IMG/VR virus record: IMGVR_UViG_3300011008_000177
Location: 2,230-66,229 of that record
Length of the DNA stretch: 64,000 nucleotides
Reading direction: 5' to 3' (one strand)
DNA from: a virus
Lineage: Duplodnaviria; Caudoviricetes
Shown: piece after piece, positions 1 through 62,491 of the stretch
Layout of the letters: each line of letters begins with the position of its first letter
How positions within the stretch are numbered: the stretch's first letter is position 1
Program-made: the position numbers and the translations under genes
The notes under the pieces: generated by a model
Told to the model about the DNA's origin: nothing
The model's database searches: none
Seen by the model: only the letters and a program-made list of their open reading frames with translations

Positions 1-1015
1 ACGTTCCGCTGATTTGTGGAGTAGGAGCATTAACTGATGTAAATATTGGTCTTGTACTACGTCCAACAACACCACTGGATGAATCAAGAGGAATTTCTCC
101 AAGTGATTTGTTAAAGATTGGCTGCGTTGCAGTATTAACTCCTGATGCGTAAATTGCATCACCAAGCTCAGGATTAAAGTTCAATGAATTACTGACTATC
201 AAATATTGTTTTAATAAGTCATTTGCAATTGCATTTACTATAACTGAACGATATGGAACAACATTCCATCGAATTGAATATACTACGTTATCATGTGTTC
301 CAAAGTCTTGGTTATCAAATATTTTTGCCTGATCTATTGATCTAGGATAAACATCTGCAAGTAAAACAGCTCGTTCAACTTGAGATCCAGATCTATCAGT
401 TACAATATGAATTAATTCACACGTATGTTGGGATTCATTGAATTCATATGCATCGGTATCAGATGAGTTATACTGATAAAGTCGGACGGGATTGCCGTTG
501 TTGTCAGTTCCACCTGAGATTAATCCACCATAGTGAGAAAGTCCACTATTTTCATCTCCAATCGCATTCATCCAACCATCAATAACAGTTAAAATTGGAG
601 ATCCATTCATTTCGTAAAGATCAGTTGTAATTTCTGTAGTACCATCTTTAGTAACTGTTGGCGTATTGAATTGTCTTCCGGCAAATCCACCCTGAATAGG
701 TGTTGATGCATTGTCAATTGTTTTTTCTCCAAATCCTGAGATACTTTTGCACATATATTCCATCATATGTTTAAATTGCATAAATGTTGATTTTGAAGAA
801 TACATATCATTTGGCCCAGATGCAAACATACGAGCAATTACAAATGGTACACGAACCATGAATAATCTTGTGAAACTATTCATTAGTGGTGAATAGTTTG
901 ATAAGGCATGATGCGTTGCATTTACTCCACCAACAAACATTGAATATTTCGTAAAGTCAGAAGGATTAAATTGTCTAGCACCAGTCTGACTTGTAATAAC
1001 ACCATTAATAGCCAT
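1..1015 (-). CDS. Tail tube protein (phiKZ/AR9-like), 3'-truncated by window edge; absent from the ORF track
   Basis: ATG at 1015 with GGAGGTGAA RBS; the frame begins MAINGVITSQTGARQFNPSDF and is open in the segments I translated, including the stretch reaching position 1. It lies directly downstream of the sheath gene, the canonical sheath-tube order. Confidence 0.75.
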   Translation of the reverse strand, partial: MAINGVITSQTGARQFNPSDFTKYSMFVGGVNATHHALSNYSPLMNSFTRLFMVRVPFVIARMFASGPNDMYSSKSTFMQFKHMMEYMCKSISGFGEKTIDNASTPIQGGFAGRQFNTPTVTKDGTTEITTDLYEMNGSPILTVIDGWMNAIGDENSGLSHYGGLISGGTDNNGNPVRLYQYNSSDTDAYEFNESQHTCELIHIVTDRSGSQVERAVLLADVYPRSIDQAKIFDNQDFGTHDNVVYSIRWNVVPYRSVIVNAIANDLLKQYLIVSNSLNFNPELGDAIYASGVNTATQPIFNKSLGEIPLDSSSGVVGRSTRPIFTSVNAPTPQISGT

Positions 1016-1035
1016 ATTTATTCACCTCCTAAGAA

Positions 1036-3462
1036 TTAGTATTCAGGTCTATTGATATTGATTTCAAGAATAATTCTCTTAACAATATCACGGAATGCTA
1101 CGTCAACATAGCAGTGCATAATCATACGTTCTTGTTCCCATTCATTAGCTTCAAATCTAATGTCGAGATCCTGAACTAATGTACCAATCCAAGGACGGAA
1201 ATATTGCATCTGTACATCAGTATATCCTTTACGTGCTTCTGGTTCATTCCAATCATATAAGTAACCTCTGCAAGCTTTTTCAAGTTTCTTTTTAAGAGCA
1301 TTAAGTACACGAATGTTATTTTCTTCCAATAAAGCAGAAGCATCTTTTTGTCTAGTATTCTGAGTAGCACGCTGTACGTGACGACCTTCATCAGAAGTTA
1401 AATAATAATTAACTCTATTGTCTTTAAATAAGAATTCTTTTACATCCCAATTTATAAGATCAATATCTGGACGGAATGAGTCTCTAATCATGTTACCAGT
1501 AACAGTAAGATTTGCATTTCTTTGAAGTGCTGTAAGTTCTGCATATGCACCTGTAAATGGTTTTTCTAATCCATATGTCATGATATGATTTACAAGATTT
1601 GATGCAATGAAATATGTGGCGGTAACTTTAATACGTTTCCCAGATACTGGATCAAAAATTTCATATGAGCCAAGATCTACAGATGTTGAACGTCCTGTAA
1701 AATCTTTCAACATATTAAGCATATCAAGAAGTTCAAAGTTTACATCAATATTCTTTGTTTCAACAAGACCACAATCAAGATGGAGTAAACAACCGGCACC
1801 TTGTTCTGGATTGATGATCATACCATTTTTATTACGGAATTCATTAAGATTCCACATTGCTTCTTTAACATTAAGATCTGACATTTTAAGAAGCTCATTC
1901 TTCTTACGAAGAATTGTTAATTCGTTTAAGTTTTCATCTGTTAATACAGACGAATATCCATAAACTTTTGCAACAGAAGTATCAAATCCTAAATTATCTT
2001 CTTTTGTCATATTATAGTTAGCATCGAAAATAAAATCAAGATCTATACGTGCAGGAGAAAGAATTTTTTTATCCTTTTCTCCATGGAAAGCTTTTACATA
2101 TTCTCTAGCTAATAAGAGTTTCATTTCTGATTCTGTTGGAGCACGTTTTACTCCATTGACTGAAACTTCTTCGAAATCGCCATCTGATCCACCAACAAAT
2201 TGAATACCTGTTGAAGATGCTAAATCTACACCATCATATTGATCAGCATCGATTGCAACTTCCACACCATCATCATATGTGATCGTACCATCATCGGCAA
2301 CATTAATTACCGTATATAAATAACGATATCCATCATTCAATGGATCAGCCAATACTAATACAGTATTACCAACTTTGGCAGTTCCCCAATCATTGGTTGA
2401 AAGAGGTTTTCTACTAGGAACTTGAACATCAGGTTCAACATAAGGTCCATCTGCAGAAACTGTATAATTTCTATAGTAAGGAATTATTTCACCTGATCTG
2501 GTGAGATACTGATATCCAAATAATGGATCGAATGTATCAGGTACAATACTCTTAGCAATTTCTAACTCTTCAGCTTCTTCTTCAGTCATTTCAGCAGCTG
2601 TTAAATAAGCTTCATTCGTAGTGACCACTTCTTGATACTTAGCAAAAATTGCATCAAAAGTATCTTCAAATGAATGAATGAATACAGGACAACTACCAGT
2701 AGAGAATTGATCAAGCACATCGGAAATTAATGTTGACATCTCATAACGAGTTGTCTGATATAATGATCCCGAGAATATATTTGTAACAACAGATGTATCA
2801 TCATTATTAATTAATGAGAATTTATACATTTTTACTGAATATTCTTTCTCAGCATCCATATCACGATCTATTGCCATTGAATAATTATTTCCATAATTAC
2901 CTCTACCAATAGATCTTACATAAAACATTGGTTTTGTAACATAACCAGTTTGTGGATCTGCTGATGTTTCAAGTGATTTTGCTAATTCAGTAATTGATTC
3001 ATCATCAAGTGCTCCATTAGATAATGAAACCTCATCAGCATTGACAACTGAGAATTTTACTTCGAGTCTCTTTAATCCTGTCTCCTGTGCATAGTCATCT
3101 AAGATTTTACCAACACGATAGTGTGCAAGTACAATAAAATTAGCATATGTTGCATTGTCAGGAAGAACTCTCATGAACCAAACATTGCAATAGCCATTAA
3201 ATAACTGATCTGCTTGCAATGAAGATTGTCCATATTTCATAAAGTTACTCTTACCAAAAATGGCTTCCTTTGTATTATAATCGCTTAATCTAACAAATAC
3301 GTTATCAATTCCTTTGTCAGCACCAGTAACTACACATGTTGAATAAGGTTTTTCTGACGAAGGCTGTGCAACAGTTTCATCGTAGAAAGAATGATCATTA
3401 ATAACCACATGTACGTGTGGATGCGCATAAAAAGGAATGATCTGGGCTACATCATCAGCCAT
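1036..3462 (-). CDS. Tail sheath protein
   Basis: ~808 aa from ATG 3462 (AAGGAGAGTG RBS; track start 3489). N-terminal HPHVHVVINDHSFYDE and a sheath-like C-terminus (DIRFEANEWEQERMIMHCYVDVAFRDIVKRIILEINI); context next to terminase and tube. Confidence 0.85.
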   Translation of the reverse strand: MADDVAQIIPFYAHPHVHVVINDHSFYDETVAQPSSEKPYSTCVVTGADKGIDNVFVRLSDYNTKEAIFGKSNFMKYGQSSLQADQLFNGYCNVWFMRVLPDNATYANFIVLAHYRVGKILDDYAQETGLKRLEVKFSVVNADEVSLSNGALDDESITELAKSLETSADPQTGYVTKPMFYVRSIGRGNYGNNYSMAIDRDMDAEKEYSVKMYKFSLINNDDTSVVTNIFSGSLYQTTRYEMSTLISDVLDQFSTGSCPVFIHSFEDTFDAIFAKYQEVVTTNEAYLTAAEMTEEEAEELEIAKSIVPDTFDPLFGYQYLTRSGEIIPYYRNYTVSADGPYVEPDVQVPSRKPLSTNDWGTAKVGNTVLVLADPLNDGYRYLYTVINVADDGTITYDDGVEVAIDADQYDGVDLASSTGIQFVGGSDGDFEEVSVNGVKRAPTESEMKLLLAREYVKAFHGEKDKKILSPARIDLDFIFDANYNMTKEDNLGFDTSVAKVYGYSSVLTDENLNELTILRKKNELLKMSDLNVKEAMWNLNEFRNKNGMIINPEQGAGCLLHLDCGLVETKNIDVNFELLDMLNMLKDFTGRSTSVDLGSYEIFDPVSGKRIKVTATYFIASNLVNHIMTYGLEKPFTGAYAELTALQRNANLTVTGNMIRDSFRPDIDLINWDVKEFLFKDNRVNYYLTSDEGRHVQRATQNTRQKDASALLEENNIRVLNALKKKLEKACRGYLYDWNEPEARKGYTDVQMQYFRPWIGTLVQDLDIRFEANEWEQERMIMHCYVDVAFRDIVKRIILEININRPEY

Positions 3463-3547
3463 AGTTGTTTCACTCTCCTTAAAATACAAATTTTTATAAA
3501 AAAGACTATTCTCTTTATTGATATTAATTTAATGTTTTATGTGTTTC

Positions 3548-4258
3548 CTAATAGTGGATGATTTTTTCCAACGGAGAAACAGGTTCTTCAATGTTATTTA
3601 ATGAATTATCAACTCCTGAAGAAATCATTTCATTAATTGCTTCAAATGTCATTCCGCTGAATGTTGATAAATTCTTAACAGCATTACGAACATTCTGTGC
3701 TTTGTAATCATATCCGTTTCCTTCTCCAGTTCCAAAGTATTGTCCGTATCGTTGTTTATTATTACTCGGACTGCGATAGATTGCTGAAATAATTAATTCA
3801 TATATCTTCGAAGGAACATTATAGGATACACCAGAGAATTCTAAATTTTTCCACCAAATATTTATAAGATTTAAATAATTGAGTGTGTGTGGTAATCTTC
3901 CACTTAGCATTTTATCTAAAAATGCTGTTGCATTGCCAACATTTTTAGTTACACTTTGGTGCATTATACGAGAATCTTTTGGATATTTTAATGTAATAAC
4001 ATCTAGAGAATTGTCATGAATTGTGATGGATGTTTTTTCTGATTCGTATAACATTAAATTACACATCATTGGTAATGCTAAGATTTGTAATTTGTCAGGT
4101 TTACCATTTTCAAATCCTCTAATATTACAAACACCAAATGTTTCGTAATAAGTTCCTCTATTAAATGCTAATTCATCATCAACGTATGATTCTGGAATAT
4201 AAATTTCTAAATATTTACTTGCGTAAATTTCATTATCTTTTGCATATAAAAGTCCCAT
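3548..4258 (-). CDS. Putative small C-terminal fragment of the RNA polymerase beta' subunit (split phage RNAP)
   Basis: C-terminal blocks IYELIISAIYR / STFSGMTFEAINEMISSGV / SPLEKII align by eye with RpoC [11 protein letters not shown] / [20 protein letters not shown] / GLKENVI. Confidence 0.5.
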   Translation of the reverse strand: MGLLYAKDNEIYASKYLEIYIPESYVDDELAFNRGTYYETFGVCNIRGFENGKPDKLQILALPMMCNLMLYESEKTSITIHDNSLDVITLKYPKDSRIMHQSVTKNVGNATAFLDKMLSGRLPHTLNYLNLINIWWKNLEFSGVSYNVPSKIYELIISAIYRSPSNNKQRYGQYFGTGEGNGYDYKAQNVRNAVKNLSTFSGMTFEAINEMISSGVDNSLNNIEEPVSPLEKIIHY

Positions 4259-6529: not shown

Positions 6530-7549
6530 ATGATTAAGAAAGTAGGAATTTTTCATTCAGATCTTGATGGTTTAGGATGCAGTATAGTATTTAAAGCTGC
6601 AAATTATTACCTAAAAGAAAATATCGATTATTTAAATTTTAATTGCAACATTGGTATTGATGTTACAAATACTGTGGAAGAAGTTTTAAAACGTAAAGAT
6701 ATTTGTGATCAGACAATATTTTATTTTGCTGATATTGTACCACCAAAAGAAACGTTACAAAAATTATTAGATAATCAATTCAGAGTAAAAATTTATGATC
6801 ATCATAAGAGTAATAAATATGTATTATCTTTATTACCATCTGCAATCATTATTAGTGATCCTGTAAACGGAAAACTTGAATCAGGTACAAGTATTTTATA
6901 TAAATATTTGAAACTTGAAAATGAAGAAAGATTAAAGAAACTTGGTAAAAAGAAAAGTATCATATGGAAAGGTGATGAATGTTTATTCTATAATGTATTG
7001 ATACCAATATTCGTGGATACTGTAAGATCATATGATACATTTGAATGGAAAGATTCTAATAATATGGATGCAAAGAAACTGCAAATACTATCAACATTGC
7101 TTGATCCTAATTTATTCATTAATAATTATTTAAAGAAATTCAAAAATGGTTGTATGTATTTATTTACAAAAACAGAATTGGAATTTATTCAATCAAGAAT
7201 TGATAATGAAGATTCTATCATAGCAAAATTTTCGGAAAATGATATCATACCAATTAATGTTAAAGGATATAATTGTGCACTGATAATGGGACCCTGTGGA
7301 GTTAATTTTAGTAGACTTGGAAATAGTTTTTTGGAACGGTATCCAAAATATGATTTCATTGCACAGTTTAGTATTAATGATATGACAATTGGTGTTAGAA
7401 GTTTAAAAGACGATTTTGATTTAACAACTGAACTTGATGGATATTTATCTCCAAAAGGTCATCCAAAAGCAGCTGGGTGTAAATTACCGGACGGAATAAA
7501 AAATAAAATTGTTAAGTTGATTATTGATGGATTCAACAATGCCTACTAA
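6530..7549 (+). CDS. DHH/DHHA1 family phosphoesterase (NrnA/NrnB-like)
   Basis: HSDLDGLGC, FADI, YDHHKS (DHH motif) and C-terminal GHPKAAGC (DHHA1 GGH-like motif). Confidence 0.85.
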   Translation: MIKKVGIFHSDLDGLGCSIVFKAANYYLKENIDYLNFNCNIGIDVTNTVEEVLKRKDICDQTIFYFADIVPPKETLQKLLDNQFRVKIYDHHKSNKYVLSLLPSAIIISDPVNGKLESGTSILYKYLKLENEERLKKLGKKKSIIWKGDECLFYNVLIPIFVDTVRSYDTFEWKDSNNMDAKKLQILSTLLDPNLFINNYLKKFKNGCMYLFTKTELEFIQSRIDNEDSIIAKFSENDIIPINVKGYNCALIMGPCGVNFSRLGNSFLERYPKYDFIAQFSINDMTIGVRSLKDDFDLTTELDGYLSPKGHPKAAGCKLPDGIKNKIVKLIIDGFNNAY

Positions 7550-7970
7550 TAATAATTTAATAACATCAAAAGATATTGTTTATTTTAGAATGGCATCTCA
7601 ATTAGCTGAATTTTCAACATATCGAAAATCTCCAACAGGATGTATTATTGTATATAAGAATAAAGTAATTTCGACAGGATTCAATAAAGATAAAACAGAT
7701 CCATTGCAAAAAATATATAATATACATCGTAACATATCACTAGATTCTCCACCAAAATGTCATGCCGAAACAGATGCTATTAAGCATTTAATTGGAGCTG
7801 AAAATATTAATTGGAATATGATCTCATTATATATTGTAAGATTAAGAAAATCTATACAATATGGATTAGCAAGACCATGTGCATCATGTATGCAATTAAT
7901 TAAAGATTGTGGTATTCATCATATATATTATACAACTAATAATGGATATGCTTATGAATATATTGAATAA
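7539..7970 (+). CDS. Zn-dependent cytidine/dCMP deaminase-family protein
   Basis: CHAETDAI (HxE) and RPCASC (PCxxC) motifs; ATG 7539 overlaps the end of the DHH gene (track start 7524). Confidence 0.85.
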   Translation: MPTNNNLITSKDIVYFRMASQLAEFSTYRKSPTGCIIVYKNKVISTGFNKDKTDPLQKIYNIHRNISLDSPPKCHAETDAIKHLIGAENINWNMISLYIVRLRKSIQYGLARPCASCMQLIKDCGIHHIYYTTNNGYAYEYIE

Positions 7971-8058: not shown

Positions 8059-9351
8059 ATGTATAAACAAGAAATGATGCAATTAATTTGTGATAGTTGT
8101 CATACTAAATATGAATTGAATAAAAATAGTTATCAAAGTAGATGTAGAAGGAAAAGTCCTAACCTATGTCCAATTTGTATGACAAAATATAAATCTAAGA
8201 TGAATAAAATTAGAAAACAAAATGAATGGAATAATAAAACACCGATAGAACGAGAAGAACATAGGAAAGCGACTAGTAAAGGAATGGCTAATATGTCAGA
8301 AGAAGCTAAGAAAAAACGATCTGAATTATTAAGCATAGCTACAACAAATTATCTTAGTAATTTAGACACAACCGAAAAAAATAGAAGAATTAAGAAAGCC
8401 AAAGAAACTATAGCTAATACAGATATTCAAATTTTACAAGATAGACATAAGCGACAAATTGAAGGAGCAAAATTAGCATATAAAAATAAATCCGATGATG
8501 AAAAGATAAAGCAAATTTCAGAATTATTGAAAAATAGAGATAATTATTATGCAAATAGAAATGAAGAAGAAATTAATAGAATATCAAAATTATTAAGTTC
8601 TATTAAAAAAGAATATTACGAACAATTATCAAAAGAAGAAAGATTATTGCAAATAAAACCGTTGATTGATTATATAAAAAATGAAACAATAGATCAAAAA
8701 GATGATCGTCTTAAAAAATCTGGTATTAAACAAAAAATAATATGGGATAACAAAACAGATGAAAAAAGAGAATATGATATAGCTCGGTTACATGATGGAA
8801 GAGATAATTATTATAAAAATGAAACATATGAAATATTTGTAGAAAAGGTTTTAAGAAATGCTATTAGATATAATATTGCTGGAGAAAATAGAACTAAATA
8901 TATCATTACTTATCATATAGATGAAATGAGATATAATACAGAAAGAGAATTTCTTAGATTATTAGTAAATAATAATATTGATTTTATTTTTCAATTTTAT
9001 AGTACAATAATTCATCCAAAATTCCATGAATTATTTCCAAATAATCCAATCACAGGAGCTAACTATGTTTCACCATTTCATAGATGGGATTTTATGATAA
9101 AAACGAAACAAACTAATATTTTTATAGATATTGATGGTAGTATACATAATTTAAAATATAACTCACCAATATCCAAAGGTCGAAAATTTGATGACAGTCA
9201 ACGTTTATACCAAACAGATGAGTTACCAGCATATATAGTAAAATGTTATAATGATAGATTAAATCTTGATAATATAGTAATTAATTTATATAGTAATGAA
9301 GAATTAACTGTAAACGATTTATTTTATATTATTAATGATTATAATAAATAA
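8059..9351 (+). CDS. Freestanding putative homing endonuclease: Zn ribbon + 19-23-aa helical repeat array + PD-(D/E)XK/EDxHD-type nuclease
   Basis: ATG 8059 after AAGGTGA (track start 7909). CDSC..CPIC Zn ribbon, ~10 repeats of [YW]xNx[TS]xEE+, C-terminal HRWDF..IFIDIDGSIH; close paralog of the intron ORF 60585-61769. Confidence 0.7.
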   Translation: MYKQEMMQLICDSCHTKYELNKNSYQSRCRRKSPNLCPICMTKYKSKMNKIRKQNEWNNKTPIEREEHRKATSKGMANMSEEAKKKRSELLSIATTNYLSNLDTTEKNRRIKKAKETIANTDIQILQDRHKRQIEGAKLAYKNKSDDEKIKQISELLKNRDNYYANRNEEEINRISKLLSSIKKEYYEQLSKEERLLQIKPLIDYIKNETIDQKDDRLKKSGIKQKIIWDNKTDEKREYDIARLHDGRDNYYKNETYEIFVEKVLRNAIRYNIAGENRTKYIITYHIDEMRYNTEREFLRLLVNNNIDFIFQFYSTIIHPKFHELFPNNPITGANYVSPFHRWDFMIKTKQTNIFIDIDGSIHNLKYNSPISKGRKFDDSQRLYQTDELPAYIVKCYNDRLNLDNIVINLYSNEELTVNDLFYIINDYNK

Positions 9352-9424: not shown

Positions 9425-12025
9425 TTAATAATTGTAGGGTTCACCCATATCATCTATAGATGATACTTGATTTGGATTAACTATTTTAACATTCATTATT
9501 TTTTTATAACAATTAAGAAGTTGAGTTCTAAATCTTTGAAGTTGGTCTTTTGTGTACGGCACAATATAATTTTTACTACCAATGTCTAATAATTCAATAT
9601 ACCACTCACAAATTTCTAGCTTGCTAGCGGTATAACTGGCGATCATTAATTTATCATTATAATCTCTAATGGCTTCGGTCTCAATTGTTATATATGCAAT
9701 TAAATCAGATGGAAATTTTTTAAGTTTTTTTACTTTACTAAAAAATCCTTCTTGATAATATTCTACTGTTTTATCTTTTTCTTGATGCCAATCATTATCT
9801 ATTAAAGAATTTTCAAATTCAATTTGATATTGTTTTTCCAAATCATTAAATTCTTTATTATGATATTTTTCCAATAGTATTGGAACATTTTTAATTTGTT
9901 TATACACTTCATAATTATTTAATGATCTGATTGATTCAACAATCATTTTACAATTATCAATACAATTTTCTAATTCTAATATAGCATGTAAATAATCAGA
10001 TAATATATTTTCATTATCCAATAATGATTCTTTAAATGAAAAATTATTATCAATAAATAGTGATTCAATTAACATTGGTAATATTCCTTTTAAATCAGTA
10101 TGCTCAATTATATACTTTTCTTTATTTGGTAATAATTTATATTCATAAATTAAATTATTTACCGGAATATCTATATTATCTGAATAGAAGATTATTGATT
10201 CTTTCAAGAAATTAATAATATCATCAGCTGATCCATTTTTAAATGCCATTGGTGATATTTTATATATTAATTTATTTTCTCCATTATGTAGTAAATTACT
10301 GATAGTATCTTTTGATTCTAGTAATTTATTAATAAATTTATCATCAACATTTGATACGCTAACTTCAAACATTAAAGATGGATCATCTAACAATTGAATT
10401 TCAAATGAATTAAATTTATTATCTAATTTAGGAAGAAATTCTTCAGTAAATATTTTACTAATTGTATCCAAATTAGATTGTGTTGGATCATTTGATAATC
10501 TGTCACATAATGTTTGTAACATACTTTCTGATTTCAATTCATCTTTTTTATCTTTAATTTTTAAATGCTTTTTTAATAAATCAATATCTGGAATCCACTC
10601 TATATACCAATCATCCCAGTCTCCATCCCATGAAGCATTTCCAAATTTAAAATCATTTACAATTTTTACTAATTCATCCATAATATTTTCACAGTTATTG
10701 ATTACCTTAACACATAAATCATTACTTCTTGTTACTGGATTATCTTTATGAGTTTCATTATATTCCCAAAGATCCCATCCAACTATCCAAATATATCCAT
10801 TTTCTAAATATTCTTCCCAATAATAATCATCAATTTTATCATAAACACTAAACATTGATTTATACTCAGGATATTTATCAAGACATTTGTTTAGACTTGG
10901 ACCCATTTTTTTCATCATTGATTGAACATATTTTTGTAATTTTTTCGATTCATCATCATCTAAATCATTAAGAAATTCATCATCATCAGATTTTTCAATT
11001 TCTTCATCTTTTTCATCATTTTCTTTGTTGCTAGTCCACCACCATTCTGTTAGATATTCATCTTCATAATGATGGTTTTGTAAATGCTCGTATAATAATT
11101 TACTGTATTTATCATCCAATTGTAATTGTAAGCATCCATAAGTTTCATTATATAATAATTTCGTTAATCCATTATCAGTATAATTTTCATTGAAGAATTT
11201 TGTTAATCCACCAATAATTCCTTTAACGGCTTTATTATCTAATTTGATTTGAGTATTAATATTAATTTTTCCATCCATGTAATTCCCATTTCCAGATAAT
11301 GTGGTTTCTCCAATACAATCTAAAACATTTGATGACATTGATTTTATTCCATTTTTTACAGATGATAAATCATAGTTTTCTTTGTAGTATTTATTTTCTG
11401 CTTTTTCACATAATATTTCCAAAGTATTTTTAATATTATCAATACTTTCTTTTACATATATTTTTAATTGATTTGGTAATTCTTTATATTCATATTCTTT
11501 TTCATATATTACCGATTCATCTAATTCTTTTTCTTTATTAATTTCTTTTACTTTTTTAAATTCAAACAAATCCCAAACTTTTTTAGCATCTTCTCCAACT
11601 AACCAAACATCAAATCCTTCAAAAGATTCTCCATTTTTATATTCACTTCGTAATATTAAATTATATTCTTTTTTAATAACATTTTTACATCTTTCATATA
11701 AAGTATTTATTAATTTATTCAATTTTTGTTCAACTGAATTTTCATTCATATTTTCAAAATGTCCTGTTATTTGTATCATGCAACTAAATTTATTTTTATT
11801 ATTATATGCTCGAATAGATCCAACTTTATTCTTATCAGTAGGCCCAACTAAAAATTCATCAATCTTAGATTTTGCCCATTCATCATTATTCAATTCTTTA
11901 AATTCTTTTTCATTTTCCAATAAATTATACATCATATCTTTCAATACTTTATGTACTGATATTAGATTCTTTTGTAAATTGTTGTCTAAATCTCCAAAAT
12001 ATCCATCTTTAACTAATTTAGGCAT
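9425..12025 (-). CDS. Large acidic hypothetical protein, likely inner-head/virion protein
   Basis: ATG 12025 after GGAGG (track start 12046). Several xxES/xxEG segments resembling prohead-protease sites; near the capsid gene. Confidence 0.5.
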   Translation of the reverse strand: MPKLVKDGYFGDLDNNLQKNLISVHKVLKDMMYNLLENEKEFKELNNDEWAKSKIDEFLVGPTDKNKVGSIRAYNNKNKFSCMIQITGHFENMNENSVEQKLNKLINTLYERCKNVIKKEYNLILRSEYKNGESFEGFDVWLVGEDAKKVWDLFEFKKVKEINKEKELDESVIYEKEYEYKELPNQLKIYVKESIDNIKNTLEILCEKAENKYYKENYDLSSVKNGIKSMSSNVLDCIGETTLSGNGNYMDGKININTQIKLDNKAVKGIIGGLTKFFNENYTDNGLTKLLYNETYGCLQLQLDDKYSKLLYEHLQNHHYEDEYLTEWWWTSNKENDEKDEEIEKSDDDEFLNDLDDDESKKLQKYVQSMMKKMGPSLNKCLDKYPEYKSMFSVYDKIDDYYWEEYLENGYIWIVGWDLWEYNETHKDNPVTRSNDLCVKVINNCENIMDELVKIVNDFKFGNASWDGDWDDWYIEWIPDIDLLKKHLKIKDKKDELKSESMLQTLCDRLSNDPTQSNLDTISKIFTEEFLPKLDNKFNSFEIQLLDDPSLMFEVSVSNVDDKFINKLLESKDTISNLLHNGENKLIYKISPMAFKNGSADDIINFLKESIIFYSDNIDIPVNNLIYEYKLLPNKEKYIIEHTDLKGILPMLIESLFIDNNFSFKESLLDNENILSDYLHAILELENCIDNCKMIVESIRSLNNYEVYKQIKNVPILLEKYHNKEFNDLEKQYQIEFENSLIDNDWHQEKDKTVEYYQEGFFSKVKKLKKFPSDLIAYITIETEAIRDYNDKLMIASYTASKLEICEWYIELLDIGSKNYIVPYTKDQLQRFRTQLLNCYKKIMNVKIVNPNQVSSIDDMGEPYNY

Positions 12026-12170
12026 TATTAATAACCTCCAATTCACTTCTATTGATTAACTAAAAATATTATAAAGTGGTGAAATACCCTATAAATTTAA
12101 TTATTATTTTAATTATATATTCTAATAGTAATAATATAAAATATTATATCATAAAGGAGAATATTAAATT

Positions 12171-12923
12171 ATGGAAAATAATAATAATAAAATAATATGG
12201 AAAGATATTATAATAGATAAGAATGTGACAAATTATGAAGTAAATAATATTGGCCAAGTTAGAAATAAAATAACTAATAAAATATTAAAACCAATAAGAT
12301 CAGAAAAGATTGATAATACATATTTACACGTTGCTTTATTTATTAATAAGAAACCAAATTATCAATTATTGCATAGATTAGTAGCATCAGCATTTATACC
12401 AAATAATGATCCGAAAAATAAATTATTTATAAATCATATTAATGGTATAAAGAATGATAATAGAATTGAAAATCTGGAATGGTGTACAGCTTCTGAAAAC
12501 ACAAAGCATGCTTATAGTATAGGATTATGTAAATCAAGAGTTGGTACAGATAATAATTTTACAAAATATAATGATGATCAGATTCATATGGTATGTAAAT
12601 TATTAACAAAATTTCTTCCAATGAGATTAATTAGTGAATTAACAAATGTTACCAGTAGACAAGTTAAGAAAATTAAAAATGGTCAGCATTGGAAATATAT
12701 ATCATCATTATACAATATTAACTATCATGAAAAGTATAAGTCTCACAATATTAAATATAAAGAATTAAAAAAGATATTAATAGAATTAAATATATTTGAT
12801 AAAATAAATTTATTAAGTTTATTAAATTCTGATAATATTACTCATAAAAAGAAATTAATAGAAGATTTAGAAAATTTAGATTATACAATATTCATTGACT
12901 CAAAATTGATAAAAGAATTATAA
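12171..12923 (+). CDS. Freestanding HNH homing endonuclease (NUMOD4 + HNH)
   Basis: IWKDI..YEVNNIGQVRN (NUMOD4-like), LHRLVASAFIPN, INHINGIKNDNRIENLEWCTASENTKHA. Confidence 0.9.
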   Translation: MENNNNKIIWKDIIIDKNVTNYEVNNIGQVRNKITNKILKPIRSEKIDNTYLHVALFINKKPNYQLLHRLVASAFIPNNDPKNKLFINHINGIKNDNRIENLEWCTASENTKHAYSIGLCKSRVGTDNNFTKYNDDQIHMVCKLLTKFLPMRLISELTNVTSRQVKKIKNGQHWKYISSLYNINYHEKYKSHNIKYKELKKILIELNIFDKINLLSLLNSDNITHKKKLIEDLENLDYTIFIDSKLIKEL

Positions 12924-54903: not shown

Positions 54904-55713
54904 ATGAAAAAATTAGTCTATGAGCAAATCGATAAGAACATAATAATTTATGCAAAGAATCCTGTCAGAGTTAATGACTTAATTATCACCCCCAGAATAT
55001 TATCATATCAAATAATACACCCAGATGAATTTAGTATACTTAAACATGATTCCGTGATCCAAGTTATTGTTGCACCAACGATACATGAATTATTAGATTT
55101 GAAATTAAAAGAAATTTTAAAATCATTGCTTGATTGGGGAGAAAAATTTAATTTTGGAAAAATAAAAATTTTCTTTAGAATTCCAAAAAATCATCCATTA
55201 TTAATGGAACAAATTACAGTTGTAAAAACTCTAATTGATGAGTTGAATGATTTCATGAAGGATGAGTTTGCATCAAGAAAAATGCATTATCAAATTCGAC
55301 TATTCTTAGAAAATGAAATAACATTTGGAAAAGATTCAAACAGTACAAAACTTACATGTAGTTTTAAAAATGGTACATTTGAAATTATTAAACATGTCGC
55401 TGATAAATATCATCGATTTCGTTATGATAATAATCAAATAAAGAATTATGTTAAAGATGATACTAATTTATTACTATATCTAAAATCGAATACTCCAAAA
55501 GCTATATTAAATACTTTTAAAAGTGATAAAGAATTATTAGATTTCTTTAAAAAAGAATATTTACAAATAAATGATAAAAAATCAATTAAGTTAAATCCAA
55601 TCAATCTTACAACAGATGAAAAGGATATTAATAAATTAAAGGAAAATATTACCAAAACAATTAAAGAAATTTTTGGTGTTGATGAGGAGCATGTTCATGT
55701 TGAGAATAATTAA
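54904..55713 (+). CDS. Hypothetical protein
   Basis: 269 aa with AGGAG RBS. Confidence 0.6.
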   Translation: MKKLVYEQIDKNIIIYAKNPVRVNDLIITPRILSYQIIHPDEFSILKHDSVIQVIVAPTIHELLDLKLKEILKSLLDWGEKFNFGKIKIFFRIPKNHPLLMEQITVVKTLIDELNDFMKDEFASRKMHYQIRLFLENEITFGKDSNSTKLTCSFKNGTFEIIKHVADKYHRFRYDNNQIKNYVKDDTNLLLYLKSNTPKAILNTFKSDKELLDFFKKEYLQINDKKSIKLNPINLTTDEKDINKLKENITKTIKEIFGVDEEHVHVENN

Positions 55714-56341
55714 AGATATATTTTCTCCAGTATTAAGTGATCGAATAATAAAAAAATATATGAAAAAGAAATTGTTAATTGAATCTCCCATAGAGGAGAT
55801 TCAATTTCAACCCAATTCTGTAGATTTGACATTATCCGATAAAGTTAAAGTTTTAAATCATGATTATTATCATAATTATTCAAAATATGATGATCGGATT
55901 ATAAATAGACTTGATAATTATATTGATATAAGATTTCCAATTAAATATATCGACAAAACATTTGATACTTGTATAACATCTTCTGGAAAAGAATTAAAAT
56001 GTTATGTATTAAATCCAGGAGATTTTGCACTAATGTCAACAAAGGAAAAATTAAATATTCCTAATGGACTAATTGCATTTGTACAAGGTAGATCATCAAT
56101 TGCTCGTTTGGGTATTCAAGTTGAACAGGCTGGTTTGATTGATAGTGGATTTACTGGTGCAATAACATGTGAAGTATTTAATGAAACTCATGAAAGAATC
56201 ATGCTATTTGAAAATATGAGAATAGCTCAAGTATATTTCTTCAAATCACAATATGCTGATAAATTATATGGTATCTTCGGTAGCAAATATCAAAATCAAT
56301 CAGGACCAACAGAATCAAGAATTAATAATGATTTTAAATAA
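55697..56341 (+). CDS. dcd: dCTP deaminase
   Basis: ATG 55697 after GAGGAG (track start 55673). LSDRII, QPNSVDLTL, GRSSIARLG, GLIDSGFTG, RIAQ, KYQNQSGPTESR. Confidence 0.92.
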   Translation: MLRIIKDIFSPVLSDRIIKKYMKKKLLIESPIEEIQFQPNSVDLTLSDKVKVLNHDYYHNYSKYDDRIINRLDNYIDIRFPIKYIDKTFDTCITSSGKELKCYVLNPGDFALMSTKEKLNIPNGLIAFVQGRSSIARLGIQVEQAGLIDSGFTGAITCEVFNETHERIMLFENMRIAQVYFFKSQYADKLYGIFGSKYQNQSGPTESRINNDFK

Positions 56342-57143: not shown

Positions 57144-59188
57144 ATGGCTTATAATAAGATTCAATTAAAATTAAAATGTGAATGGTGTGGGAAAGATTTT
57201 GAAATATTAAAAAGTGTTAATCATCGTAGAAAGAAAAATAACACACCCGATCTTTGTGAAGATTGTATAAAAATTCATAGAAATAAAATAATCAGTGAGA
57301 AACAAAGTAAAATTTGGAATAATAAAACTGAAGAAGAATTGAAACAAATATCAGATTTACATAGAGATATTTGGTATAACCAATCAGATGATGTTAAAGA
57401 TAAAATTTTAAACTTAGCTAAAGATGGTTATCAAAATTATTTAAACAATATGACTGATGAGCAGAAGAAAAATATTTCCAAAATGCATAGGAAAGATACA
57501 TTAGATTATTATGCAACAAGAACTGAAGAGCAAAAAATAAAACACAATGAAAATCTTTCCAAAGCTAAAGAAGAAGAATGGAAAAATATGAATGATGATG
57601 AAAAAAATAAACGTTTGTATGCACTTCATATTGGGGGAGAAAATTATAGACGAAATATGACTGAAGAAGAAAAGAAAATTCAGAATAAGTTAATGATTAA
57701 TGGTAGAAATGAATGGTTGAAAAATTTAACCGATGAGGAAAGAATTTATTATATCACAAAATTATCATTATCTCTACAAGAATCATGGGATCTGATGACT
57801 CCTGAAGAAAGAGAAGAACGTTCTGAATTAATTAAACAGGGTATGAAAAATATGTCGGATGAAGCTAAAGAACAAATGCATGAGAATCAAAAAATAGCTG
57901 CTATCAAAAGATATAAGGATCCGGAAGAACATGAAAAAATTAGTAGAGCTATTAGACTGGGTAAAGCTAATATGTCACCAGAAAATAGAAAACAAATGAT
58001 ACAAAATTCATTTAGAAATAAAGATTGGTATAATCAACTACATCGGAAATTTGAAATATATTTCAAAGAATCAGAATTATCTAAACATTTCTACTATGAT
58101 AGTGAAATTTATGTAAATAATAATTCTATTGGACATTTATGGGATTATGGAATATATAACAAATATGGAGAATTAGAATTATTATTAGATTTAGATGGTG
58201 TATTTTATCATGCAGATGATAAGTATGATTATAATGGAATACAATCACATGAAGAATATGATGAAATAAGATATTTATCAATTCCAAATAATATTAAATC
58301 ATGTATTATATATGAATTAAAATTTGATGAATCGTTTGAATATCTAATCAATATTTTAAAATTATCATATGATGAATTTATAAAAAATAAACATGAATAT
58401 TTTAAGAATATTAAATTTCCATATCCTCAATATAATGATAAAGAATTAAAATATTCATATGAGCAATTATGTAAATTAGATAATGATGATACAAATCATA
58501 AAAATAAAATATTCTTAAATGTAAAATTAGGTAATCACTTAATTTACCATTTTCATCCTAGTATATTTAAAGATCATTATAATGATAAATTATCTCCATA
58601 TGATATATGGAATGATAATAAATCTTTAATGAATTTAATGATAATAAATCTTTAATGAATTTAATTAAATCTAATGCATTATTACATAATCATTTAAATA
58701 TGAATAAAATATATCAATCATTTAATATGAATTATGCTATAAGATTTATAAATGCAAGCAGATCTAAATTAATAATAAATAAATATTTAAATGATTATGA
58801 TTTAATATTTAATCCATATGATAAATATTCAGGTATAATGTTAGGATCATTATCATTAAATAAACAATATATCGGATTAAATGAAAATATCGATATATTA
58901 AATGAATCATATAACATGATACATTTTCTACAGAAATATTTTAAAATTCCACAGGTGAATATATACAATAAAAATATATTATCACATACTGGAAGTTATC
59001 CATGTTTGTTTACATCATTATCACTACATGATGATTCAGATAAATTCATAAATGAATGTTTATTAAGATTTGATTGTAATAAATATGTATTCGTTATAAA
59101 TGATACACACAAATACAAAAATAATGTGGTAGAAAAAATTTATAATAGAAATTATTATGATGAATATATCATATTAATTAATAAATAG
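57144..59188 (+). pseudogene. Zn ribbon + 23-aa repeat array + PD-(D/E)XK-type nuclease + degenerate DNA methyltransferase-like domain, split by a 26-nt duplication
   Basis: Track ORFs 57144-58655 and 58655-59188 fuse in frame (672 aa) when one duplicate copy is removed. CEWC..LCEDC; seven consecutive 23-aa repeats; HLWDY..LLLDLDG; IFNPYDKYSGIMLG..YIG (motif I-like); CLFTSLSL (lost xPPY). Confidence 0.65.
58611..58662. repeat. Perfect 26-nt tandem duplication
   Basis: aatgataataaatctttaatgaattt at 58611-58636 and 58637-58662. Confidence 0.95.
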
Positions 59189-59205: not shown

Positions 59206-60369
59206 ATGTTAGAATATTTAAACAAATTACCATCAGCTTATAGAGATAATGTTAATATAGGTTTACTCTATAAAAAATATGATCGTCCATTAGCAGAATA
59301 TTTGTTTGAAGCATTTAAGTCAATGGAAATATTACCAAATATAAAAATTTTACGATATGAATGGGATCAACGTGAAGATGCATATGATCCAAATGATCAT
59401 ATTGTTAGAAGAAATACATTAAAGAATAAATTAGTAAAGAGTATGAGTGAAACTAGATGCGGTATATTTACATTATTTGCTGAAGTTGGTGGGATTGATA
59501 AGGATGGCAAATACAAATATCAATATATTGCAAAACCTATCATTGTGCCCATTGAAGATGAAAATGGATATTTAATGATTAAGAATAAACGCTGCTATTT
59601 AATATATCAGCTAGTTGATAAACTTTGTTATCCTTCATTTTCTGCAGTAACAGTAAAATCATTGATGCCAATATGTGTTAAAACATCCAAAGATAATTTT
59701 ACTGATACAAATGGAAATGAACATGTAATTTCCACATATACAATTCAAATCTTTAAAGATGCAATAAATGTATTATTAATATATTCACATATGGGAATTA
59801 CTCAAACTCTAAATTTCTTAGAAGTTGATAGATTTATTAGAGTTGAAGAAAGATCAGCTGAGTATTTAGATGAAGAAGAATACATTAGATTCAATTGTAA
59901 TAAAGATAATGATATTTGCATTGCTGTATTAAAGAAAGCATTTGAAAAAGATATTTATGTAAGATCTATTGTTGGATGCTTAATTAATTTATTCAATGAA
60001 ACAAAAGTTCCATATAAAGATATTGATAATGTTGATGAATGGTTACTGATAGTTGGAAAAAAGAATACTGTAAGTAAGGGTAGATATCAACATATATTCT
60101 TTAATCGTTTATTGGATGATGTAACAAAAAATGAATTGAAAATAAATGCTTATGATAAGCAGAATATTTATTATTTATTACGATGGATATTACAAAATTA
60201 CTTAGATTTATGGAGTAAAGATAATCTAAGTATGATCAATAAACGTATTCGTAGAAACGAATATGTTGGATCTTTTATTACTAAGGAAATTAGTTCTAGA
60301 ATCAATAGAATAATTTCATTAGGTAACAGAGCTACATTAAAGGACAACTTAAACATGTTCAAATTCTCT
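59206..60369 (+). CDS. rpoB: RNA polymerase beta subunit N-terminal half (split phage RNAP), exon 1
   Basis: IVPIEDENGY..LIYQLVDK and KRIRRNEY motifs; GGAGG RBS; the exon ends at the U of a U-G wobble in P1 (..TTCTCT). Confidence 0.85.
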
Positions 60370-61951
60370 AAATAAAATCTTTGGAGTTCTTTTCATAATT
60401 GCTGGAAGTTCCTTAAGCTCAAATAACCGCGATTATATAGTAATGTATAATGTCAGCAAATATCGTAATGGATATTGGATGGTAATATCATTTGAGATTG
60501 GATAATCAGCAGCTAAGAATAATTTATAAATGCTATCAAATATTTACTATACACATATTAATAGAAAAGAGGTGAAATTATATTATGGATAGATCTGCTA
60601 CTAAAAATACATATAAATGCATAAATTGTGGTAAAGAATTTACCACTAACATTATTTATCCACATGGCTTTCTTTGTTGTGATTGTAGAAAATTTACAAA
60701 GATAACAGTAAAATGTTCTATGTGTGGTAAAGATATTCAACTACATTGGAATTCTTATCGTAGAAATTTTAATGGTCCATTTAGATGTCAAGATTGTTTC
60801 AATGATTATCAGAAAAATAATAAAATTGAATATTATAAAAATGAAACTGAAGAAGAAAAACAGAAACGAATTGAAAGTCATATTGATGGATGGAACAATA
60901 TTTCAGAAGAATTAAAACAATCAATAGCAAAGAAAAAATCTATTGTAATGAAAAACAAACTTAAAGATTTATCACATAATGAAAGATATGCTAAAATATC
61001 TAAAGCTATTGATAAAGTTAAAGAGAAATGGGATAATATTCCAAGATCTGAACATAACAATTATATGGATCATATTCATAATGGTTATGATAAATGGCGT
61101 TCAAATTTATTAAATAATAATATTGCTTATAATGAATACTGTAACAATTTATCATTAGGACAAATAACAAGATATAAAAATCCTAATGAACGATTAAAGA
61201 CATCTATGATCATGAGATCGATAGCATCCAAAATAACATATGAAGAATTTCTCAATCAAATATATAAAAAAGTTATTAAATGGAATAATGATAGTTCTAA
61301 ACATATTCATACAGAAACTGATACTGAAGAAATGTTTAAAAATATATTAGATATATTAAATATTAAATATACTTTACAATATTTCAATACTATTCGAAAT
61401 CAATCATTTAAAGAATTATTTCCATATAATCCGTATTATAAAACTGAATTTATTTCCCCATATCATCGTTGGGATTTCTTGATACATATTAAACCATTTG
61501 ATATTTTTATTGATATTGATGGAAATATTCATGATTTAAATACTCATCATGGAATGGTTACAAATAAAATTGGAAATAAATTTAATTTAAATGATTATAT
61601 TCAATTTAATGACTTGCAAAGAAAATATCAAACTGATAATCTTCATGGATATGTTATTGAATGTTACAATAATAAATTATCAAATGATACAATTGTAACT
61701 GATATTATTACAGGTAAAAAATTACCATTAAATCAATTTTTAAATCTGATAGCAAAATTTAAATTATAAATTATTCGTGTTCAACGACTATCTCATTTAT
61801 GAGAGTACAATCATAAGTTAATGATGATTGGAAACGAAAAGCGTTATAATATTTTTAATATTGTAATGAAGATATAGTCTCATCTTTATAGAAATATAAA
61901 GCAGAGTTAAAAGCTCGGTATAAGTGTTACGAACTTATATGAAGATAAATG
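60370..61951 (+). mobile_element. Group I self-splicing intron (1582 nt) with embedded endonuclease ORF
   Basis: P1 ctct|aaa pairs with tttggag (U60369-G60383 wobble). P AATTGCTGGAAG 60397, Q AATCAGCAG 60504, R GTTCAACGACTA 61779, S AAGATATAGTCT 61869; terminal G61951; P10 aaatct/agattt. Splicing gives in-frame FKFS-ADLF. Confidence 0.93.
60585..61769 (+). CDS. Intron-encoded endonuclease: two Zn ribbons + helical repeat array + PD-(D/E)XK/EDxHD-type nuclease
   Basis: CINC..CCDC, CSMC..CQDC, 19/23-aa repeats, HRWDF..IFIDIDGNIHD; AGAGGTGA RBS; located between Q and R. Confidence 0.82.
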   Translation: MDRSATKNTYKCINCGKEFTTNIIYPHGFLCCDCRKFTKITVKCSMCGKDIQLHWNSYRRNFNGPFRCQDCFNDYQKNNKIEYYKNETEEEKQKRIESHIDGWNNISEELKQSIAKKKSIVMKNKLKDLSHNERYAKISKAIDKVKEKWDNIPRSEHNNYMDHIHNGYDKWRSNLLNNNIAYNEYCNNLSLGQITRYKNPNERLKTSMIMRSIASKITYEEFLNQIYKKVIKWNNDSSKHIHTETDTEEMFKNILDILNIKYTLQYFNTIRNQSFKELFPYNPYYKTEFISPYHRWDFLIHIKPFDIFIDIDGNIHDLNTHHGMVTNKIGNKFNLNDYIQFNDLQRKYQTDNLHGYVIECYNNKLSNDTIVTDIITGKKLPLNQFLNLIAKFKL

Positions 61952-62491
61952 GCAGATTTGTTTATGACAACTTTATATTCGTCAGGTGTATTAAGATATG
62001 CTGAAAATAATAATGACATGGATATGAAAAGTAAAATCCTATTCACCAAGAAAGGCCCTAACTCACTCGGGGTCAATGATTCCAGAAGAATTCCTACAAG
62101 ACAAAGAATACTACATCCAAGTATGTTGGGATATGTTGATATATCAGATTCTAGCAGTAGTGATCCTGGACAAGGTGGAAGTCTTAGTCCATATTGTGAT
62201 TTAAAATCAATGTATTTTGATGATTCATTATATGAAAATAAAAAACACTATGAATTAGCAAAATTATTAGACGAATTTCCATATGAATGGGATGGAGAAG
62301 AATTTCATATTCAATGTGAAAATGATATTCAATATAATGAAGTATTGGATAAATTATTTGAATATGGAAAAGATAAAATAAAAATGTATGGAGTATCTTC
62401 AAATCCATTTGAAATAATTGTGGATGAAGATCCACGAGATAAGTATAGAAAGTTTGATGAAGAAAAATTTCTAATGAAAGAAGAGAATTAA
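61952..62491 (+). CDS. rpoB: RNA polymerase beta N-terminal half, exon 2
   Basis: SSGVLRY, TKKGPNSLG, LHPSMLGYVDISDSSSSDPGQGGSLSP (RpoB fork-loop region VHPTHYGR..IGL..SL equivalent); spliced product 567 aa. Confidence 0.85.
   Translation, partial: ADLFMTTLYSSGVLRYAENNNDMDMKSKILFTKKGPNSLGVNDSRRIPTRQRILHPSMLGYVDISDSSSSDPGQGGSLSPYCDLKSMYFDDSLYENKKHYELAKLLDEFPYEWDGEEFHIQCENDIQYNEVLDKLFEYGKDKIKMYGVSSNPFEIIVDEDPRDKYRKFDEEKFLMKEEN

Follow-up and report, generated by a model that had tools for sequence, protein, structure and literature searches.

The window analysed here is a stretch of 64,000 nucleotides (positions 2,230 to 66,229) of the IMG/VR virus record IMGVR_UViG_3300011008_000177, assigned to the Caudoviricetes (Duplodnaviria). 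The record is 66 kb long and has a CheckV completeness of ~25%, implying a phage of jumbo size; the GC content of the window is 26.5%. Three of its genes, referred to as A, B and C (Table 1), encode proteins in which an N-terminal zinc ribbon of the CxxC...CxxC type, present twice in B, precedes a run of helices and then an alpha/beta domain. The three are paralogous: in BLASTP comparisons with C (8059), B (60585) has an expectation value (E) of 6e-34 and A (57144) one of 5e-17. The original prediction, made from the letters of the sequence, had noticed these three open reading frames (ORFs) and ascribed to all of them a single layout of zinc ribbon, helical repeats and PD-(D/E)xK nuclease. 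The ORFs lie where it placed them and the three components are present, but A possesses two more domains and the three-part layout fits only B and C.

Homing endonucleases fall into a small number of families, and the NUMOD add-ons through which some of them bind DNA are poorly understood. A, B and C probably belong to a large family of phage homing-type endonucleases that lacks annotation and in which an STPR-type modular DNA-binding arm is coupled to a Vsr-like nuclease of the PD-(D/E)xK type. In the layout proposed, the N-terminal zinc ribbon would be followed by an arm of tandem single-helix units and by the nuclease at the C-terminus.

Table 1. Coordinates of the three paralogs, of their parts and surroundings in the window, and of related genes in other records
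Record	Feature	Position	Strand	Details
Window	Paralog C	8059..9351	+	430 aa counted from the ATG at 8059; free-standing; zinc ribbon, array, nuclease at ~8911-9348
Window	Paralog A, first ORF	57144..58655	+	503 aa; zinc ribbon, repeat array, nuclease-like core, helical connector; shortened by frameshift
Window	A, zinc ribbon	57177..57266	+	C12, C15, C38, C41, nearly invariant across the family alignment; model strands 7-22, pLDDT 84-90
Window	A, helix array	57315..58016	+	Residues 58-291, ~11 single helices; 10 repeat-model units with spacings 19, 23 (six times), 19, 40
Window	A, seven exact 23-residue units	57372..57854	+	Residues 77-237 in the W-first register (76-236 in the register of the original prediction)
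Window	A, alpha/beta nuclease-like core	58035..58358	+	Residues 298-405; E321, H331-x-W-D334, D349-x-D351-G and H356 kept in B and C
Window	Exact 26-bp tandem duplication	58614..58665	+	58614-58639 identical to 58640-58665; shifts the frame of A
Window	Paralog A, second ORF	58655..59188	+	177 aa; displaced C-terminal part; class I methyltransferase fold, degenerate motif I, no PPY motif IV
Window	Exon 1, RNA polymerase beta (N-terminal part)	59206..60369	+	Matches residues 15-366 of AR9 non-virion RNA polymerase chain 7s00_c, E 1.6e-26
Window	Group I intron	60370..61951	+	1582 nt; 5' exon ends in U (60369), last intron base G (61951); holds B
Window	Paralog B	60585..61769	+	394 aa, intron-encoded; two zinc ribbons (residues 8-71), helical array (76-240), nuclease (241-394)
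Window	B, nuclease domain	61305..61766	+	Invariant in 89 relatives: E248, W296, D310, D312, G313, H316, R346, Y348
Window	Rfam Intron_gpI match, 3' core	61867..61899	+	Model positions 219-251; 28.4 bits, E 9e-5; gathering score 50 (RF00028)
Window	Exon 2, same RNA polymerase beta gene	61952..62491	+	Matches 7s00_c residues 392-469, E 1.2e-6
L009, Burkholderia phage BCSR5	GIY-YIG and array protein, QRE00295.1	1039-1962		Annotated 'hypothetical protein'
L011, Acinetobacter phage phi1_092060 (T4-like)	NUMOD3-built counterpart	1132-1809	-	225 aa
L006, IMG/VR contig	Family members	1-4000 and 9842-11902		
L007, IMG/VR contig	Family members	1-4100 and 10001-12209		

The helix run of A holds seven consecutive 23-residue units, which had been predicted and are present letter for letter. 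A repeat model was built from these units and then extended to the family by iteration. Across 183 family members, the distance from one motif anchor to the next is 23 residues in 137 cases and 19 residues in 54, the two unit lengths that had been proposed, and most of the remaining spacings are sums of 23 and 19. This periodicity is far beyond chance. The unit consensus reads [W/Y]-x-N-[L/M]-[S/T]-[D/E/P]-E-E-[K/R] and is followed by ~14 weakly conserved positions; the information content is 2.5-3.6 bits at positions 3-9 and 0.5-1.5 bits at positions 10-23, bearing out the claim of a conserved first and a variable second half. In the AlphaFold models of A and B the unit helices are 17-21 residues long and are joined by linkers of 2-3 residues. 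Each unit may thus be pictured as ~20 helical residues and a turn of 2-3 residues, in which the consensus leads into a variable and apparently amphipathic stretch; the 19-residue variant would be one helical turn shorter. The copy numbers of ~7, ~10 and ~11 suggested for the paralogs were not reproduced. The strict repeat model finds 10 units in A, one in B and five in C, while the fold models contain ~11 helices in the array of A and ~9 in that of B.

The original prediction also regarded the array as a re-programmable recognition code comparable to that of transcription activator-like effectors (TALEs), with hypervariable residues specifying bases, so that the family would be a natural TALE nuclease. 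Such a code would be in keeping with the fusion of a repeat array to a nuclease, with copy numbers that vary among paralogs and homologs, with the variable second half of the unit and with the reuse of the array with a second nuclease class, which is described below. However, the units of A share a mean identity of only 22% at the protein level (range 9-43%) and 47% at the DNA level, and Tandem Repeats Finder detected no DNA-level array in A. Because of these low identities the repeats of A are old and diverged, unlike TALE repeats, which are near-identical. The hallmark of TALEs, near-identical repeats with few hypervariable residues, is not present: information is low across all of positions 10-23, without a focused hypervariable pair, and the variability is spread over 14 positions. 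Furthermore, STPR, the closest solved analogue, reads 4 bp per helix and does so mainly through DNA shape (PMC4856987), and the flanking contacts of the homing endonuclease I-Bth0305I are largely non-specific (PMC3239194). A TALE-like code is therefore very improbable.

The likeness to STPR emerged when a profile of 89 family proteins was compared with all PDB sequences. The top match was the STPR domain of FMBP-1 (5d23_A, E 3.2e-5), the alignment covering 89 residues and four repeats in register. STPR (PF21107), which is represented by Bombyx FMBP-1 and human ZNF821, is the sole solved domain with helices running along the major groove. In the crystal structure each repeat consists of a 21-residue helix and a 2-residue linker, and the helices zig-zag along the major groove, covering 4 bp each, with a preference for AT-rich DNA and mostly shape readout (PMC4856987). 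The phage arrays share with STPR the 23-residue tandem period, units made of one ~21-residue helix and a short linker, N before the helix cap, T/S at the cap, E-E/Q-R after it and an [L/M]-S pair; the AT-rich preference of STPR also fits a phage of 26.5% GC.

The correspondence is specific to one alignment of the two repeats. When 112 distinct phage units were condensed into a matrix of 23 columns, the score of three STPR units on it was 49.5 bits in a single register and -41 in the next best, and none of 20,000 column permutations of STPR reached the former value (maximum 31.5). Per unit, the family scores 30.5 bits and STPR ~16.5 bits; the best of 100,000 random 23-mers scored 8.7. The residues through which STPR touches DNA have counterparts in the phage units. 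Arg6, which contacts phosphate, has as its counterpart a position occupied by K/R in 88% of units. Among the contacts to thymine methyl groups, Ser14 corresponds to a position with S in 39%, Met13 to one with hydrophobic residues in 64% (mostly L or M) and Leu21 to one with them in 84% (mostly W or Y). Conserved residues of STPR include Glu1, Thr/Ser2 and Arg9 (PMC4856987); Thr/Ser2 is retained in 97% of units, and the Arg9 position is K/R in 34%. Several family members also have sub-threshold matches to the Pfam STPRs model. Acidic residues avoid the face of the unit helix that matches the DNA-contact positions of STPR, and in a structural comparison 5d23_A matches the helices of B at Z 5.3. 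We infer that the arm binds DNA as an STPR-type array. Its successive helices would lie along the major groove at ~4 bp each, and an AT-rich preference would arise from lysine/arginine-phosphate and hydrophobic-thymine-methyl contacts. Were this so, STPR would gain a microbial history, the reading of long AT-rich sites by these nucleases would be explained and a simple helix-per-4-bp module would be at hand for engineering tests.

A number of observations weigh against an STPR-type arm. The hallmark Glu1 is replaced by L/M in 87% of the phage units, and Tyr16 and Arg20 are lost. The units carry a net charge of about +0.2 each against +1 to +4 in STPR, and their K/R residues form no one-sided stripe on the unit helix. 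The predicted local distance difference test score (pLDDT) of the array in the AlphaFold models is only 58-75. The Pfam STPRs model reaches its cut-off of 27 bits in no member, the best being P0005 (21.2 bits, E 3.9e-4), and has no match at E<=10 to the window's own genes. The S/T-x-E-E helix cap is a common and generic motif, other capped-helix Pfam families weakly match family members, and designed helical repeats also match the family profile (E 0.004). STPR is moreover mainly an animal domain, usually of four near-identical basic repeats in transcription factors, whereas the phage family has 1-11 diverged and almost neutral units on nucleases, together with a 19-residue variant that is absent from STPR. 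The array is thus STPR-like without being filed as a Pfam STPR member. Convergence is possible, because the cap is common and designed helical repeats score as they do.

It is attractive to consider that the units are true homologs of the animal domain. Arrays of one helix per 4 bp would then be an ancient modular targeting device of phage selfish nucleases, with array length and the variable helix face setting the length and preference of the target, and the animal domain of FMBP-1 and ZNF821 would be a domesticated offshoot or the donor. This is a tentative and somewhat doubtful proposal. If it holds, an array found attached to Vsr-like, GIY-YIG and nuclease-methyltransferase enzymes would be a candidate engineering scaffold. 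A literature search for papers linking STPR to phage proteins found none.

A different origin for the arm is suggested by NUMOD3 (PF07460), another short, repeated, capped-helix module of homing nucleases. NUMOD3 modules of GIY-YIG and HNH phage homing endonucleases are reportedly the subject of work by Sitbon and Pietrokovski in 2003. The units could be stretched NUMOD3 or similar nuclease-associated modules, forming extended and mostly non-specific tethers as in I-TevI, in which case the likeness to STPR would reflect convergence on a capped amphipathic helix. The setting is the same, since the family units too are found on Vsr-like and GIY-YIG homing nucleases, and the generic cap and the weak matches of many capped-helix Pfam families are compatible with such an origin. 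Genuine NUMOD3 units also align with the unit model in register over S-E-E-x-K-x-K-I-S, their own core being a similar S-x-E-x-K-x-K-h-S, although weakly, at 2-6 bits. A parallel layout is even found in Acinetobacter phage phi1_092060, where a single protein combines a zinc ribbon, two Pfam-NUMOD3 units and a nuclease core of the DUF559/Vsr type (V-D-I...F-E-V-N-G-N-Q-H).

Against this, the Pfam NUMOD3 model has no match in the window at E<=10, yet as a positive control it finds three copies in phi1_092060, and NUMOD3 is not among the top Pfam families of the 89 family members. The NUMOD3 period is 18 residues, not 23 or 19. On the 23-column matrix genuine NUMOD3 units score -4 to -9 bits, compared with 16.5 for STPR and ~30 for the family, in agreement with the earlier view that the units are longer and more regular than NUMOD3. 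An origin from NUMOD3 or its kin is accordingly unlikely.

The array is not confined to the zinc-ribbon nucleases. A search with the array of family member P0031 led to protein QRE00295.1 of BCSR5, a cultured jumbo phage of Burkholderia and the sole cultured-phage example found. This protein lacks a zinc ribbon and has an N-terminal GIY-YIG domain (LEM-3-like, E 6.7e-10) followed by six units of 23 or 19 residues, which match the unit model at E 5.6e-24 and score up to 39.6 bits on the matrix. Since family units also follow GIY-YIG in BCSR5, the array is a transferable module that is attached to nucleases of at least two unrelated classes, and it occurs at either end of the protein. This reuse is the best, albeit indirect, argument that the array may bind nucleic acid.

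It also bears on the view that the arm has no part in DNA binding and instead links the nuclease to a DNA-binding zinc ribbon as a spacer, ruler or oligomerisation stalk, or is a maturase-like arm that binds RNA. The near-zero net charge and K/E-rich composition of the units would suit such a role, as would the conserved hydrophobic positions, which could pack helix on helix, and the modest confidence of the models. However, the array is reused with an unrelated nuclease that has no zinc ribbon, and it matches a proven DNA-binding repeat, including the residues of the thymine-methyl pocket. In the models the helix is interrupted at every unit, at intervals of 19 or 23 residues, and on this ground a stalk formed by one uninterrupted alpha-helix or by a coiled coil was rejected. 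An RNA-binding arm is difficult to reconcile with the free-standing copies, which have no intron RNA to bind. An arm of this kind is highly unlikely, and an STPR-type DNA-binding arm remains the preferred reading.

The third module was examined in B, whose nuclease domain has, in addition to its invariant residues (Table 1), five that are at least 90% conserved in the 89 relatives (H294, D297, D343, Q349 and D351). The family motifs are E ... H-x-W-D ... D-x-D-G-x-x-H ... D-x-x-R-x-Y-Q-x-D. In the model of B, E248 lies in helix 246-257, D297 just before strand 298-301 and D310 and D312 in strand 306-312; the position of the canonical PD-(D/E)xK lysine is occupied by Asp. When residues 244-394 were compared with known structures using VIA-align, in which rows within 1 Z unit count as tied, the top matches were all members of the PD-(D/E)xK superfamily: Hjc (Z 7.1), I-Bth0305I (3r3p; Z 6.1, 95 of 98 residues aligned with 17% identity), Bax1 (Z 6.0), Vsr (1cw0; Z 5.9), I-Ssp6803I (Z 5.2) and the DUF559 protein 3hrl (Z 5.0). 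Matches in a viral structure library were to DUF2726, mismatch-endonuclease and homing-endonuclease proteins. A Foldseek search of the B model against PDB also had Hjc, RecU and MGME1 at the top, but with E values of only 0.04-0.3, none being at E<=0.001. From these fold models membership of the PD-(D/E)xK superfamily, as originally proposed, can be regarded as established.

Within the superfamily, the nuclease is likely to be of the Vsr-like branch. The EDxHD family is defined by E, D, H and D residues (PMC3239194), and the conserved E248, D297, H316 and D343 follow one another in the same order. The assignment to Vsr or EDxHD is tentative because no Z score reaches 8 and Hjc is matched as well as the Vsr-type enzymes are. 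Other comparisons also speak against a firmer placement. A nuclease-only profile had no match at E<=10 among PDB sequences, and the Pfam Vsr and DUF559 models had none at E<=1 in the family proteins scanned. An hhalign comparison with the DUF559-type protein of the Acinetobacter phage pairs W-D-F...D-I-D-G-x-x-H with V-D-I...E-V-N-G-x-x-H at a probability of only 0.4-2%.

Among the closest known analogues of the arrangement is I-Bth0305I, with the Vsr-like 'EDxHD' enzymes that include the phage Hef-type enzymes (3r3p; PMC3239194). Both it and the family have an N-terminal modular DNA-binding region and a C-terminal Vsr-like nuclease, and both it and B are intron-encoded within a phage gene. 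I-Bth0305I differs in having two NUMOD2 helix-turn-helix motifs where the family has a zinc ribbon and up to 11 single-helix units of 23 or 19 residues; there is no detectable sequence similarity between the two, and the D-x-D-G-x-x-H core motif is that of the family. By analogy with the NUMOD region of I-Bth0305I, the arm would be expected to provide a long but tolerant footprint that positions the nuclease.

B has its coding sequence inside a group I intron, as originally proposed, and the interrupted gene is that of an RNA polymerase beta subunit (rpoB). The exons are colinear with the beta chain of the AR9 non-virion RNA polymerase (matches made with ORFs 59206-60375 and 61949-62491), and joining 60369 to 61952 keeps the reading frame (F-K-F-S/A-D-L-F). 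The Rfam match to the intron core is partial; since the ribozyme is interrupted by the 1185-nt ORF, the score stays under the cut-off, and scanning the entire window with Rfam at gathering level gave no match. A scan of viral contigs for intron-less homologs of exon 1 found none. By its setting, then, B appears to be an intron-encoded endonuclease in an essential jumbo-phage gene, and homing is the role that suits it best; its presumed target is the RNA polymerase beta allele without the intron in related phages that infect the same cell. C would be a free-standing copy of the same enzyme type.

A comparable setting exists in phage PhiPA3, whose intron enzyme is reportedly a nuclease of the HNH class. 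There too, the multisubunit RNA polymerase gene of a jumbo phage has a group I intron with a homing endonuclease, which acts in competition between phages (PMC12908238). Intron endonucleases in the jumbo-phage RNA polymerase gene have recently been shown to be weapons between co-infecting phages (PMC12908238), and B likely serves competition during co-infection as well. The phage lineage differs, the beta subunit here being AR9-like, and the two systems are likened by their setting.

At the spliced junction (60350-60369 joined to 61952-61970) the insertion site is centred in a 5-bp inverted repeat, CAAAT-N9-ATTTG. An equivalent inverted repeat is found at ~3% of positions in this AT-rich window, and for this reason it is only a weak hint, drawn by analogy, of a dimeric, pseudo-palindromic target like that of I-Bth0305I.

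In A, the first ORF ends at 58655 only through the 26-bp tandem duplication. When one copy is removed, a 672-residue ORF runs through 58655-59188 and a segment that is conserved in relatives is restored; A-type homologs, some 30 proteins, are 630-715 residues long. The gene is thus broken in this assembly. In the database product P0001 (651 residues), residues 1-499 of the first ORF continue with the Met at 58727, so that the duplication and ~22 conserved residues are passed over as though splicing had been assumed; the product is not a natural protein sequence. An alternative genetic code and a spliced gene were considered as the origin of P0001 and rejected, the duplication being the simple explanation.

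The AlphaFold model of P0001 (pLDDT 77.6) consists of the zinc ribbon, ~11 helices, the nuclease-like core (298-405, pLDDT ~90), a helical connector and a Rossmann domain. The last of these resembles class I amino-methyltransferases (Foldseek E 4e-5), with VIA-align scores of Z 13.5 for METTL5 and 12.8 for Trm11/Trm14, and the whole model matches the type IIG enzyme BpuSI (3s1s) over 511 columns (Foldseek E 4e-4). For the intact relative P0011, matches were found to a phage 'N-4 cytosine-specific DNA methylase' and to a gene of a Lak megaphage. A would therefore represent a subfamily of longer proteins, which carry a helical connector and an amino-methyltransferase domain after the three modules, a layout like that of type IIG enzymes. 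As in BpuSI, though for A only among the paralogs, PD-(D/E)xK nuclease, helical connector and amino-methyltransferase fold are united in one chain. Unlike BpuSI, A has an N-terminal zinc ribbon and repeat array in place of a C-terminal target-recognition domain, which is absent in A-type proteins, their chains ending with the methyltransferase fold; its S-adenosylmethionine-binding and PPY motifs are degenerate, and its gene is frameshifted.

Around half of the A subfamily retains motif I (D-P-F-S-G-F-S-G) and motif IV (C-P-P-Y). In A of the window and its four closest relatives P-P-Y is absent and motif I altered. Judged by its motifs, A is probably a nuclease-methyltransferase fusion whose methyltransferase is dead. 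The protein is also probably decaying, since these motifs are degenerate and the gene is frameshifted. All 15 Lak megaphage records contain relatives, at 34% identity, of the connector and methyltransferase half of intact A-type proteins (E ~1e-43; for example MK250016.1, 41713-42603); the records are unannotated.

The family is considerably larger than these three genes. An exhaustive profile search of 1.84 billion cluster representatives (clusters at 50% identity) returned 575 matches at E<=1e-3 and 184 at E<=1e-30; among the matches listed, the proteins are 182-538 residues long and have 1-11 units. None of the matches in named databases has a Pfam domain or an informative name, one being labelled 'hypothetical protein'. 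Scans of A, B, C and several relatives with Pfam, PHROGs, NCBIfam and PADLOC gave only noise or hints of zinc ribbons, leaving a family of 575 clusters that no model of these collections covers. A phmmer search of PDB sequences with A and B likewise found only zinc fingers. In 50,697 deposited phage genomes, tblastn with A and B found no match, and neither B nor P0031 has a full-length match there. With the array alone, a word-based search recovered only the query protein itself, and a search of the ESM Atlas gave one weak lead (DUF7487, score 0.85). The family seemingly is confined to uncultured, mostly large phages, and is best described as a new, large and undescribed subfamily of Vsr-like homing endonucleases.

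The related contigs L006 and L007 each contain 3-4 family members within 22 kb, several of them frameshifted, and have almost no gene order in common with the window. The members comprise an array-less nuclease-methyltransferase copy, a copy of the B/C type, a zinc-ribbon fragment and a copy of the A type; the split copies are of the A type in L007 and of the B/C type in L006. With several frameshifted copies per contig and no synteny with the window, the family shows selfish-gene behaviour.

Two further genes of the window may concern the chemistry of its DNA. AR9, the phage whose RNA polymerase beta chain resembles that of the window, is a uracil-DNA phage. The ORF at 55673-56341 is a dCTP deaminase/dUTPase-like gene (Pfam DCD, E 5e-32), and that at 7524-7970 appears by eye to be cytidine/dCMP deaminase-like, with H-A-E and P-C-x-x-C motifs. 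Because such deaminase-type ORFs occur in a phage with an AR9-like RNA polymerase, the window phage may use modified or uracil-containing DNA.

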